Made by a program: the position numbers and the translations under genes. Shown here one piece after another: positions 6,832 to 9,368 of a stretch of DNA of 64,000 bases. The DNA is taken from assembly GCA_038211695.1 (NCBI GenBank), contig JBBQVH010000007.1, forward strand, positions 34,647 to 98,646, read 5' to 3'. The stretch is from Blastocatellia bacterium. Lineage in GTDB: Bacteria; Acidobacteriota; Blastocatellia; RBC074. The notes beneath the pieces are model-generated. The model did not search any database. It was not told the origin of the DNA and was given only the letters and a program-made list of their open reading frames with translations. How positions within the stretch are numbered: position 1 is the first letter of the stretch; every line of letters begins with the position of its first letter.

Positions 6832-7917
6832 ATGCAGACCATCATCGTGACCGGCGGAGCCGGATTCATCGGCGCAAACTTCGTCCGGTACGCGCTCAGC
6901 AAAACGGATGCCCGGTTGGTGATTGTGGACAAACTGACTTACGCGGGCAATCTGGCAAGTTTGGAAGCCCCGATGAAAGACCCGCGCGTCGAGTTCGTCG
7001 AAGGCGATATCGCCAACCAAAACCAGATGCAGTCGGTCTTCAACGAACATCAGCCGACTGCGGTCGTCAACTTCGCGGCGGAATCGCACGTGGATCGTTC
7101 GATTGATGATCCCTCGCCCTTTATTGAAACCAACATCACGGGCACCTTTGTCCTGCTAGAAACCGCGCGGAAATACACGGCCAAGTTACCCGAAGCGGAA
7201 CAACGCGCTTTTCGCTTTCTGCACGTGTCCACCGACGAGGTGTACGGGACATTGGGCGCGACGGGCTTGTTTTCTGAAACGACGCCGTATGCGCCGAACT
7301 CGCCGTACGCGGCGTCAAAGGCTTCGGCTGATCATCTGGTGCGCGCCTGGCACGAAACCTTCGGCCTGCCGACGATCATCACCAACTGTTCGAACAACTA
7401 CGGCCCACTGCAATTTCCCGAAAAGCTGATTCCGTTGATGGTGATCAATGCGATGGATGGAAAGCCGCTGCCGATTTACGGCGACGGCGGCAATATCCGC
7501 GATTGGCTGTATGTCGAAGATCATTGTTCGGGCATTCTGCTGGCGCTGCAAAACGGCACGCCCGGCGAGAAGTACAACATCGGCGGCGACAACGAACGCA
7601 CCAACCTGCAGATCGTTGACCGCATCTGCGCCGAAGTCGAAAACGTCCTGCCCGCCGCTGAAAACCCCGCGCTGAAAGCTTTGGGCAAGACCAGTTATCA
7701 GGACTTGAGAGTCTTCGTCACTGACCGCCCTGGGCATGACAAACGCTACGCCATTGACGCGTCGAAGATTCGCGCAGAGTTGGGCTGGCAACCGGCTTAT
7801 GATTTTGAATCGGGCTTGGCCACGACCATTCGCTGGTATTTCGAGAATCGTCCATGGTGCGAAACAGTGCTGGCAGGGAAATACGAGCGCGAGCGATTAG
7901 GAATGGGGGCGAAATGA
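6832..7917 (+). CDS. rfbB: dTDP-glucose 4,6-dehydratase
   Basis: MQTIIVTGGAGFIGANFVRY... Rossmann GxxGxxG, YxxxK SDR motifs, 361 aa; first gene of rfbBACD cluster. Confidence 0.92.
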   Translation: MQTIIVTGGAGFIGANFVRYALSKTDARLVIVDKLTYAGNLASLEAPMKDPRVEFVEGDIANQNQMQSVFNEHQPTAVVNFAAESHVDRSIDDPSPFIETNITGTFVLLETARKYTAKLPEAEQRAFRFLHVSTDEVYGTLGATGLFSETTPYAPNSPYAASKASADHLVRAWHETFGLPTIITNCSNNYGPLQFPEKLIPLMVINAMDGKPLPIYGDGGNIRDWLYVEDHCSGILLALQNGTPGEKYNIGGDNERTNLQIVDRICAEVENVLPAAENPALKALGKTSYQDLRVFVTDRPGHDKRYAIDASKIRAELGWQPAYDFESGLATTIRWYFENRPWCETVLAGKYERERLGMGAK

Positions 7918-7970
7918 AAGGCATCATCCTGGCCGGAGCCTCCGGCACGCGGCAGGCTGTCAATTGGTAA
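7914..7970 (+). pseudogene. remnant copy of the 5' end of rfbA (18 codons, [18 protein letters not shown]), overlapping rfbB stop in the canonical ATGA arrangement
   Basis: 7914-7953 is 36/40 identical to the true rfbA start at 8481-8520. Confidence 0.6.
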
Positions 7971-7991
7971 CGATCTCACGCTGAAGAGGCA

Positions 7992-8447
7992 ATGCAACAA
8001 GAAGAGGTAAAACAAAAAGAGGGAAAAGACAGTTGGTGGCGTTTTGTTCCCTTGATCTTGTACAGCGTAGGGCAGGTAGCTTTACGTGAATCCGGTGTCC
8101 CCCCGCCCCTTGCGATAATTCTCGCTGGATCAATTGTGTTTATACCGTCCTATTGGATACCTCCGCGAGTGAAGTATGGTTTCTGGAAATATGTTTTGGA
8201 TACGGAGTACATATTGATCGGGGGAATGGCAGCGATTTACTACATCCCAGCTATTCTCATTCACAGGATTCCCAGTTGGGCGGCATATGGTCTACCTGTT
8301 TTTGTATTCGCGATCCTGTTCTATTTTCTGATGAAACCGTCTCGCGGAAAATTGCGAACAATTAGCTTTACCAAGTGGTTGCTTGTCAGTTTATCCATAG
8401 CAGTTTTTGTAGTGTTGCTTAGGACGTTCCTGTTCAGCACAAGATAG
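7992..8447 (+). CDS. hypothetical small polytopic membrane protein encoded on a low-GC insertion between rfbB and rfbA
   Basis: 151-aa ORF with 3-4 hydrophobic helices; local GC visibly lower than flanks; bounded by duplicated rfbA 5' ends. Confidence 0.5.
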   Translation: MQQEEVKQKEGKDSWWRFVPLILYSVGQVALRESGVPPPLAIILAGSIVFIPSYWIPPRVKYGFWKYVLDTEYILIGGMAAIYYIPAILIHRIPSWAAYGLPVFVFAILFYFLMKPSRGKLRTISFTKWLLVSLSIAVFVVLLRTFLFSTR

Positions 8448-8480
8448 AAAGTGAATAAAAGTGAATAACGGTAACAAACA

Positions 8481-9368
8481 ATGAAAGGCATCATCCTCGC
8501 TGGAGGTTCCGGCACGCGGCTTTATCCGATCACGATGTCGGTCAGCAAACAGTTGCTGCCGATTTATGACAAGCCGATGATCTATTACCCGCTCTCGACG
8601 CTAATGCTGGCGGGGATTCGCGAGATTCTGGTCATTACCACGCCGCAGGATCAGGCGCAGTTTCAGCGCTTGCTGGGCGATGGCAAGCAGTACGGCATTG
8701 ATCTCAATTACGCCGTGCAGCCGAGTCCTGATGGCTTGGCGCAGGCATTCATCATCGGCAAAGAGTTTGTCGGGCGCGACAATGTGGCGTTGGTACTGGG
8801 GGACAATATTTTTTATGGCCACGGGTTGCCGGAAGATTTGCGGCGCGCGTTCGAGCGCAAAGACGGAGCGACGGTTTTTGCCTATCAAGTCCGCGATCCC
8901 GAACGCTACGGCGTGGTTGAATTCGATGGCGACGGGCGCGCGATCAGTCTGGAAGAGAAACCCGCGAATCCGCGTTCGCATTGGGCGGTGACGGGATTGT
9001 ACTTTTACGATAACCGCGTGCTGGACGTTGCTGCCAACTTGAAGCCATCGCCGCGCGGCGAACTGGAAATTACAGATGTGAACAAAGTCTATCTGGAATG
9101 GAGCGAGCTTCACGTTGAAAAGCTGGGGCGCGGCATCGCGTGGCTGGACACCGGCACGCACGAATCGTTGCAGCAGGCATCCAGCTTTATTCAGGTGTTG
9201 CAGGAGCGGCAAGGGTTGATGGTGTCGTGTTTGGAAGAGATCGCCTACCGCGAAGGCTGGATGACGGCAGAAGAAGTGGCTCGCATCGCCACGCCGATGA
9301 AGAAGAACGAGTACGGGCAATACCTGCTGCGAATGCTGGAACAAGAGAATCAGAACCGAGAGCGGTAG
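8481..9368 (+). CDS. rfbA: glucose-1-phosphate thymidylyltransferase
   Basis: [18 protein letters not shown]... canonical RmlA N-terminus, 295 aa. Confidence 0.92.

Follow-up and report, generated by a model that had tools for sequence, protein, structure and literature searches.

A remnant of the rfbA start and a small membrane-protein gene at a variable rfbB-rfbA junction in Blastocatellia: a candidate natural case of one-sided homologous and illegitimate recombination

Genes of polysaccharide loci are exchanged in a cassette-like manner by homologous recombination in conserved flanks, and the rml genes at enterobacterial O-antigen loci are mosaic. [quoted passage not shown] Here, we analyze the rfbBACD operon in a stretch of 64,000 nucleotides (the window; positions 34,647 to 98,646 of contig JBBQVH010000007.1, assembly GCA_038211695.1) from a Blastocatellia bacterium of the Acidobacteriota. 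In this operon, rfbB and rfbA are separated by a remnant of a second rfbA start and by a small gene for a predicted integral membrane protein, which we refer to as Y (Table 1). We consider it reasonably probable that this arrangement arose by an HFIR-like import from a Y-carrying relative, in which a homologous crossover in rfbA on the right side would have been combined with a join at a short microhomology (CGCGGC) on the left side.

The remnant and the intact rfbA start form a direct repeat of 41 nt (7913-7953 and 8480-8520) with 90% identity and a spacing of 567 nt, and the two copies are identical at 36/40 nt when compared from their ATG codons. A degenerate pattern fitting both copies matches 2 sites only in the 64-kb window, with 0 expected from 100 shuffles. 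A first-pass annotation, made from the sequence alone, had described an rfbB stop overlapping an ATG, an 18-codon remnant, a 151-aa open reading frame (ORF) and an rfbA start at 8481, with flanking repeats of this identity, and all of these are present as described. The insert length that it gave, 527 nt, needs a small correction: the segment is real but measures 526 nt (7954-8479) by the repeat coordinates, one extra A being extendable before each ATG. The insert is also AT-richer than its surroundings, as had been noted, with a GC content of 39-47% versus 55-60% in the flanks; the GC content at third codon positions (GC3) is 48.7% in Y versus 65-71% in the rfb genes, and each of the window's 43 long ORFs has a higher GC3 (52-74%) than Y. 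Contig L001 of a Logan assembly (SRR19962015) is 100% identical to window positions 6756-8592, i.e. over 1,837 nt that include the whole junction, and represents the same strain.

Several relatives have an uninterrupted junction (L086, L088, L089 and L090), and the left copy is collinear with this junction from the final rfbB codons into rfbA. The last sense codons of the window's rfbB, GGA ATG GGG GCG, are the same as in these relatives and are then followed by AAA TGA and not by TAA: the window reads GGA ATG GGG GCG AAA TGA AAG GCA TC, collinear with the uninterrupted GGA ATG GGG GCG TAA TGA AAG GCA TT, and the remnant as a whole is collinear with the ancestral junction GGAATGGGGGCG[T/A]AATGAAAGGCAT. 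The T-to-A change converts the TAA stop to AAA, which adds a Lys to RfbB, and shifts the stop to the TGA within ATGA. This collinearity argues that the left copy is a true in-situ remnant of the recipient rfbA 5' end and not the coincidental similarity against which the first-pass annotation had cautioned. The same annotation had regarded the ATGA coupling as preserved; an overlap is indeed present, but in the uninterrupted relatives it is TAATG and not ATGA, and the modified overlap now couples rfbB to the remnant ORF and not to rfbA.

The left copy is identical at 38/40 nt to the rfbA start of L082, the closest relative. Two repeat positions, 18 and 27, vary among relatives; there, the left copy agrees with clade I, to which L082 belongs, and the right copy with clade II and with Y-type alleles. 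Of the remaining two differences, both unique, one is synonymous and lies in the right copy, and the other, at position 26 of the stub, is non-synonymous and replaces a Gly of the GGSGTR motif by Ala. These differences bear on a simple explanation of the structure, in which a mobile element or a break-repair event inserted the segment with a 40-41-nt target duplication, the copies of which subsequently drifted to 90% identity. Direct repeats do immediately flank the insert and one non-synonymous change lies in the left copy, as for a decaying stub; polarised against L082, however, three of the four differences are in the constrained functional copy and one is in the free stub, which is the opposite of drift (rough binomial p about 0.05). 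Neither a transposase nor terminal inverted repeats are found in 7954-8480, and a duplication of 41 nt far exceeds typical insertion-sequence target-site duplications. Target duplication would also leave unexplained three features described below, i.e. the rfbB-tail-like left end of the insert, the mosaic rfbA and the homology of the cargo to genes in the same slot elsewhere. We regard this explanation as very improbable.

Known types of elements were also considered. No inverted repeats with both arms in 7954-8480 were detected, and the + strand ORFs of at least 60 aa wholly within the insert are Y, which has no transposase domain, and a short one overlapping it. A transposable element, be it an insertion sequence or a miniature inverted-repeat transposable element (MITE), was rejected based on the lack of terminal inverted repeats and of a transposase and on a repeat that has 41 nt at 90% identity instead of being short and identical. 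An integron cassette was rejected because neither the 33-nt spacer that separates Y from rfbA (8448-8480) nor the rest of the insert contains an attC-type palindrome; the spacer instead contains a tandem direct 10-mer, AGTGAATAAA (8450-8459) followed by AGTGAATAAC (8460-8469). Rfam and tRNA scans of the window gave no matches.

The ancestry of the rfb genes provides another line of evidence. RfbB homologues with up to 94% identity are labelled Blastocatellia or Acidobacteriota, and in relatives retrieved through RfbB the RfbA proteins are 91-94% identical to that of the window; rfbA is thus native to the clade. A foreign rfbA, which an RfbA scan with at most 72% identity among the matches listed might have indicated, was rejected on the basis of these 91-94% identical proteins. 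The body of rfbB has clade-I ancestry with L082 and L091 as nearest relatives, and so has rfbC with about 89% identity to L082 and L083 versus 80% to L086. To score ancestry along the operon, we recorded the window's match at sites differing between clade-I L082 and clade-II L086. The window matches L082 and L086 at 110 and 57 sites, respectively, in rfbB nt 1-1050, at 35 and 56 sites in rfbA nt 151-750, and at 95 and 36 sites in the rfbA 3' end plus rfbC. A maximum chi-square scan delimited an anomalous segment from rfbB nt 1071, i.e. the junction, to rfbA nt 657, inside which 36% of the sites are L082-like versus 68% outside (0/300 permutations reached the observed value, p <= 0.003). With three other reference pairs, the right boundary was placed at rfbA nt 750-831; the left boundaries obtained with other pairs were less sharp (rfbB nt 817 and nt 283). 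In rfbA nt 151-700, L082 and L083 are closest to each other (88.0%) and each is 83-84% identical to L086, whereas the window is 87.3% identical to L086 versus 83.6% to L082, its flanking segments being clearly clade I. That L082 and L083 are still sisters while the window moves to L086 argues that the window's lineage, and not L082, is the recombinant, and we infer a homologous crossover at about rfbA nt 650-830 (window 9130-9310).

At the left side of the insert, the breakpoint lies at 7953|7954, and the last 6 nt of the repeat, CGCGGC (7948-7953), correspond to rfbA nt 35-40. The 18 nt to the right of the breakpoint read R-L-S-I-G-N in a frame continuing through CGC GGC. The C-terminal tails of 120 RfbB homologues have the form KYERERLG[LIVMT][GSA]..*, and a YERGRLG variant exists. 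CGCGGC is in register with the CGC GAG or CGC GAA codons that precede Arg-Leu in rfbB tails, and the YERGRLG variant presumably has CGC GGN at those codons. The pattern RL[GS][LIVMT][GSA] is found in 0.36% of random window 44-mers, and the codons AGG CTG are also used in the rfbB tail of L093, which carries one of the alleles described below. If the donor piece began inside the donor rfbB, an RfbB-tail-like sequence would be expected at the breakpoint; in this respect, 7954-7971 is suggestive of a stub of the donor rfbB tail at the imported segment's left end, and the illegitimate joint between rfbA nt 35-40 and this tail may have been made at the CGCG(GC) microhomology.

Combining the junction and ancestry data, we suggest that the locus is a recombinant of two rfbBACD allele types coexisting in Blastocatellia: (i) the recipient would have been a clade-I genome with the glycyl-tRNA synthetase gene upstream and with directly overlapping rfbB and rfbA genes, like the GGAATGGGGGCGTAATGAAAGG of L086 and L089, (ii) the donor would have been a related lineage with Y between rfbB and rfbA, its identity being deduced from the product, and the donor fragment would have extended from the last codons of donor rfbB through Y into rfbA, (iii) on the right side, a homologous crossover would have taken place inside rfbA at about nt 650-830, and (iv) on the left side, an illegitimate join at CGCG(GC) would have connected the fragment to the recipient's rfbA nt 35-40, either through the joining of strands or through a template switch during replication, given that a switch at CGCGGC would give the same product. 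The outcome would be an rfbB ending on an 18-codon rfbA stub, followed by Y and by an intact, partly donor-derived rfbA. A 40-nt duplication would arise in place of the usual deletion because the left joint lies 40 nt inside the homologous region and not upstream of it. In this scheme, the insertion and the mosaic tract would stem from one event. The first-pass annotation had proposed one-sided homologous and illegitimate recombination with a donor carrying a diverged rfbA, and the rfbA ancestry tract, the states of the repeat sites and the RfbB-like tail all support that proposal.

Several observations weigh against this scheme. The nearest relatives are just 83-89% identical at the nucleotide level and the clade is visibly mosaic; two separate events may thus have produced the tract and the insertion. 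When L083 serves as reference, the anomalous segment has its left boundary well inside rfbB (nt 283) and not at the junction. The RfbB-tail pattern was defined post hoc, after the sequence had been seen. Moreover, the nearest Y is just 43% identical and no sampled genome is near the donor, so that the microhomology and the tail remnant are putative. The structure occurs in one strain only, and the identical contig L001 may share its sample. Finally, classical HFIR gives an insertion with a deletion, and the duplication observed here needs an unusual joint geometry or a template switch (PMC3240628).

The duplication also invites an alternative in which a fragment made up of Y, flanked by the rfbB tail and by about 40 nt of rfbA, was circularised by end-joining and then integrated, Campbell-type, by a single crossover in those 40 nt. 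Duplication rather than deletion is the signature of such single-crossover integration of a circularised fragment and the majority product in E. coli, but the duplications reported there are of 109-950 bp compared to just 40 nt of homology in the window (PMC3240628). The order copy-insert-copy, with the rfbB-tail-like piece beside the left copy, would fit a circle in which rfbA nt 40 had been joined to the rfbB tail; the same event, however, predicts recipient-type rfbA past nt 40, whereas rfbA nt 151-700 has non-clade-I ancestry, and the four differences between the copies would need a crossover at the extreme edge of the homology or later drift. On balance, we find Campbell-type integration quite unlikely.

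Table 1. Features of the rfb operon and of the rfbB-rfbA junction in the window
Feature	Position	Strand	Basis
rfbB, dTDP-glucose 4,6-dehydratase, 361 aa	6832-7917	+	Pfam, NCBIfam, homologues, tail alignment, identity matrices
Left copy of the repeat, remnant of rfbA nt 1-40	7914-7953	+	Repeat search, junction alignment
18-codon remnant ORF	7914-7970	+	ORF list; overlaps rfbB stop (ATGA)
CGCGGC, putative microhomology at the illegitimate joint	7948-7953	+	Sequence, codon-aligned tails; inferred
AGG CTG TCA ATT GGT AAC (R L S I G N), RfbB-tail-like pseudo-fragment	7954-7971	+	Tail alignment
Gene Y, 151-aa predicted integral membrane protein	7992-8447	+	phmmer relatives, alignment, AlphaFold
A-rich spacer between Y and rfbA, 33 nt	8448-8480	+	Sequence
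rfbA, glucose-1-phosphate thymidylyltransferase, 295 aa, intact	8481-9368	+	Pfam, NCBIfam
rfbC	9571-10164	+	Pfam, NCBIfam
rfbD	10220-11086	+	Pfam, NCBIfam

The HFIR-like import that we favor presupposes relatives that carry Y at the same position. Slot states were read at the nucleotide level from context look-ups, and the region after rfbB has at least eight states among the sampled loci: (i) a direct rfbB-rfbA overlap, ...GGAATGGGGGCGTAATGAAAGG..., in L086, L088, L089 and L090, (ii) a 90-nt spacer with a palindromic element in L082, (iii) a spacer of about 115 nt in L091, (iv) a gene for a 141-aa secreted protein with a sub-threshold TIMP/NTR match in L083, (v) a gene for a 149-aa protein, referred to as X, in L092, (vi) an in-frame X-Y fusion of 290 aa in L093 and L094, (vii) a stand-alone Y homologue of 151 aa and 43% identity in L095-L104, including three metagenome-assembled genomes (MAGs) from NCBI, and (viii) the rfbA stub plus Y in the window. 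The contigs of L093 and L094 end in palindromic repeats before rfbA, and their slot is defined as "directly after rfbB"; this is where the X-Y fusion protein P0123 is encoded in L093. In the 10 places listed for P0122, the Y homologue of L095-L104, it is encoded between rfbB and rfbA wherever the sequence spans the two genes (8/10) and immediately upstream of rfbA elsewhere (2/10). The insert and Y are absent from the closest RfbB relatives, L082 and L091, as well as from L083, L086 and L089; thus, the relatives compared do not all carry the insert, as they would if it were ancestral, a possibility that the first-pass annotation had raised. The slot state does not track RfbB relatedness: RfbB of L092, which has X in the slot, is 98% identical to RfbB of L086 and L089, which have the direct overlap.

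The Y homologues that sit after rfbB in other lineages of related Acidobacteriota have 42-44% identity to Y. In every lineage, Y, X and the gene for the 141-aa protein have a GC content and a GC3 below those of their rfb neighbours; the low GC content is therefore no sign of a recent foreign origin in the window. Y is a clade-resident accessory gene and not alien cargo. On this point our data refine the first-pass annotation, which had raised the taxonomic origin of the insert as a point to check: the cargo is not taxonomically foreign, given that related Acidobacteriota have Y homologues directly behind rfbB, those of L095-L104 lying between rfbB and rfbA.

The distribution of Y-type alleles is also relevant to a mirror image of the proposed event, in which the ancestor would have had the order rfbB-Y-rfbA and an overlap-type fragment, consisting of rfbB and the first 40 nt of rfbA, would have replaced rfbB by homologous recombination on the left and by an illegitimate join into the resident rfbB tail on the right. 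This would give the same final structure; Y-type alleles are present in the more distant L093 and L095, so that Y could be old in the slot, and the final rfbB codons are overlap-type while the rest of rfbB is nearest to L082. Yet rfbB on the left and the rfbA 3' end and rfbC on the right are all clade I, and upstream the synteny with the glycyl-tRNA synthetase gene matches that of clade-I L082; the centre alone differs. A non-clade-I backbone with two clade-I imports is less parsimonious than a single central import, and we consider the mirror image unlikely. Similarly, strain-level variation in the clade at exactly this slot, together with the possible origin of the window from a MAG, raises the question of whether the structure could be an assembly chimera of two co-occurring strains, one overlap-type and one Y-type. 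A jump in the assembly graph from rfbA nt 40 to the rfbB tail needs a shared k-mer, however, and only 4-6 nt are shared; the copies differ at four sites and have hence not been collapsed; and the separate Logan assembly is identical across the junction. A chimera is in our view extremely improbable, and in the following we continue to favor the HFIR-like import.

A comparison of two closely related loci points to how slot contents may ordinarily be exchanged. Between L092, which carries X, and L089, which has the direct overlap, the 1,246 nt preceding rfbB match at 98.8% and much of rfbB at 99-100%; identity falls to about 77% over the final ~115 nt of rfbB, next to the cargo, and rfbA is near-identical again. 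This pattern argues that the cargo was swapped together with flanking sequence. We suggest that slot cargo is exchanged as a block with the flanking rfbB tail by ordinary homologous recombination, and that the window represents an untidy variant of this exchange. Independently of the slot, rfbB itself is a patchwork in a comparison of L092 (1247-2332) with L086 and L089 (6001-7083), with blocks of 99-100% identity and blocks of 87-91% identity (e.g. nt 250-450 and 550-700), indicating frequent short-tract recombination within the clade. In another phylum, a Balneolaceae MAG (L050, 5572-5961) has a gene for a 129-aa 23S rRNA-intervening-sequence protein (PF05635, E = 2.9e-34) between rfbB and rfbA; thus, small unrelated genes lodge at this junction there, too. 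A much broader idea, which we put forward as speculation with little weight, is that the junction is a dedicated, recombination-serviced cassette slot through which envelope-associated genes that are small, low in GC and fast-evolving (Y, X as its soluble partner, and the gene for the secreted TIMP-like protein) rotate as a pool under diversifying selection, e.g. by phages or competitors that target rhamnose-containing surface polymers; Y and X would then form a hitherto unrecognised membrane module of two parts by which the rhamnose glycan is modified or protected.

Y is a genuine gene in an unannotated membrane-protein family. In an exhaustive phmmer search of 1.84 billion cluster representatives, 51 relatives passed a threshold of E <= 1e-3 and 10 passed E <= 1e-10; most of the relatives have 140-160 aa and align over their full length. 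That Y is an orphan ORF, as an empty word-indexed homologue search had suggested, was rejected based on these 51 relatives. The family has the motif YWIPPRP, in the alignment of which Y54 is invariant and W55, P58, P86 and L89 are nearly invariant, and the N-terminus of Y is charged. AlphaFold2 run on the family alignment predicts a helical bundle (pLDDT 90.6, pTM 0.78) with five long helices, and four segments are strongly hydrophobic; the first-pass prediction of a membrane protein is upheld, but its count of 3-4 transmembrane segments seems slightly low. Y matched zero families in Pfam and NCBIfam at E <= 0.1, including polysaccharide-locus families of the GtrA-like PF04138 type, and the matches of its relatives to DUF6320 and DUF4199 are all sub-threshold. 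There was no match to PADLOC (anti-phage defence) or PHROGs (phage), and Y was found neither on viral contigs in a viral scan nor in metagenome scans. Foldseek comparison of the model to PDB gave no fold match (best E about 1, TM <= 0.40), exact look-ups of Y and RfbA returned no record, and the family alignment used as a profile against an indexed database recovered 3 proteins only. On the window-identical contig L001, the gene caller passed over the 151-aa Y ORF (1237-1692), and family members may be systematically under-called owing to their atypical composition.

The relationship between Y and X emerges from the fusions. The N-terminal half of P0123 is 54% identical (1e-60) to X of L092 and its C-terminal half is 44% identical (7e-35) to Y of the window; X thus occurs both as a free gene and as a fusion to Y. 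X of L092 (2363-2812) is a 149-aa Cys-rich soluble protein with no match in Pfam. As a separate observation, X of L092 (2363-2812) and residues 1-146 of P0123 have two DnaJ-type zinc-finger-like motifs near the C-terminus, CHVCGGTG and CYCGGLGW. In a second fusion, P0121, the Y domain is preceded by a DUF6966 region. From the existence of X-Y and DUF6966-Y fusions we derive a working guess, of low confidence, that Y could be a partner that anchors small soluble proteins, X among them, to the membrane. A distant member of the Y family with 32% identity, P0130, is encoded outside rfb operons. That Y is specific to the rfb operon was rejected, as P0130 adjoins a DinB-family gene upstream of a homoserine dehydrogenase gene. 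At this locus (L105, 5038-6450; GCA_031389065.1), genes for a 144-aa protein without a Pfam match, a 156-aa DinB-family protein and the 149-aa Y-like protein form a tight same-strand run, and the Y-like gene lies 15 nt upstream of the homoserine dehydrogenase gene; this could be another slot for small genes next to a housekeeping gene.

A sigma-70 consensus scan, the relevance of which to Acidobacteriota is doubtful, detected neither promoter-like nor terminator-like sites within the insert; Y is thus probably on the same transcript as its neighbours, and read-through from rfbB via Y to rfbA is the simplest expectation. The stub ORF and Y are in one reading frame with a single stop between them (TAA, 7968-7970) and 21 nt from the end of the stub to the ATG of Y. 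Translation of the two could be linked by stop-codon read-through or reinitiation. The spacer 8448-8480 has no Shine-Dalgarno-like sequence ahead of rfbA; it contains a GTAACA motif that is also present upstream of rfbA in the Y-type allele L095.

Long imperfect palindromes are present in intergenic gaps of the rfb operon in several lineages and suggest that the clade has a family of elements similar to repetitive extragenic palindromic (REP) sequences or MITEs. As a separate feature of the window, the intergenic region between the divergent glycyl-tRNA synthetase gene and rfbB (6741-6804) contains an inverted repeat with perfectly matching 23-nt arms, GGTACGCCCGCGTCCTCGCGGGC / GCCCGCGAGGACGCGGGCGTACC, that are 18 nt apart; each arm is partly palindromic, and the repeat could be an operator or a REP-like element. 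Of the imperfect palindromes, the one in the gap between rfbA and rfbC (window 9439-9552) is built with 30-nt arms at 83% complementarity. In L082 (4620-4712), a CACAGAG-rich hairpin fills the rfbB-rfbA spacer, and in L093 (2690-2853) palindromic repeats follow the X-Y gene, the contig ending there. Two genes for large secreted proteins flank the region (3316-4758 on the - strand and 11129-14443 on the + strand) and encode a similar C-terminal module, VATTQPLPT…APLFFVSP.QINF…GTGG/GTGI…VTYVGPQ/VSYAGPQ, which we take to resemble the Solibacter-type TIGR03437 domain; in relatives, an orthologue of ~1,070-1,095 aa lies directly after rfbD.

One-sided homologous and illegitimate recombination is well characterised in laboratory transformation, but for natural gene gain it has mostly been invoked and not demonstrated. 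The locus described here keeps all diagnostic pieces in an uncultured soil lineage, i.e. what is left of the recipient gene, what appears to be left of the gene upstream in the donor, the cargo, and an anchor gene within which the ancestry changes. It suggests that a conserved nucleotide-sugar operon can serve as a landing pad at which small accessory genes are traded between related strains, and it reveals an unannotated membrane-protein family, Y, and a partner, X, that are linked by fusion and by a shared genomic position. We regard the locus as a well-preserved natural case of recombination by a known route and not as a new kind of system; what is new is the undescribed small membrane-protein family Y and the variable rfbB-rfbA slot itself.

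Compared to the known systems, the locus is closest to HFIR in that one end is anchored by homology, with a donor tract that ends in homologous rfbA sequence, the other end would be joined illegitimately at a short GC-rich microhomology, the putative CGCG(GC), and DNA that the recipient lacked, i.e. Y, has been trapped. It differs in that there is no deletion of recipient DNA; instead, 40 nt of rfbA are duplicated, the joint being 40 nt inside the anchor, and the process is deduced from a natural genome and was not observed. We refer to the event as HFIR-like and not as canonical HFIR because duplication replaces deletion. With the T6SS, Rhs and CDI loci, the slot shares a variable position between conserved genes at which mostly clean homologous swaps are accompanied by occasional one-sided illegitimate events that leave remnants of the previous occupant. 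Here, however, PADLOC and Pfam gave no indication of toxins, immunity or secretion in the context, what remains is a 40-nt piece of a housekeeping gene and not a retained functional gene, and the slot lies in a nucleotide-sugar operon. The PF05635 gene of the Balneolaceae MAG resembles Y in being a gene of ~130-150 aa that is unrelated to rhamnose synthesis and has the same position between rfbB and rfbA; it belongs to another family, its product is soluble and not membrane-bound, and no flanking duplication was seen. Finally, while the material exchanged between rfbB and rfbA here is one small gene without a glycan function and that at O-antigen loci is a set of glycosyltransferase and polymerase genes, the two have in common conserved rfb/rml genes that act as anchors, a change of ancestry within an rml gene and the exchange of a block, as seen between L092 and L089.

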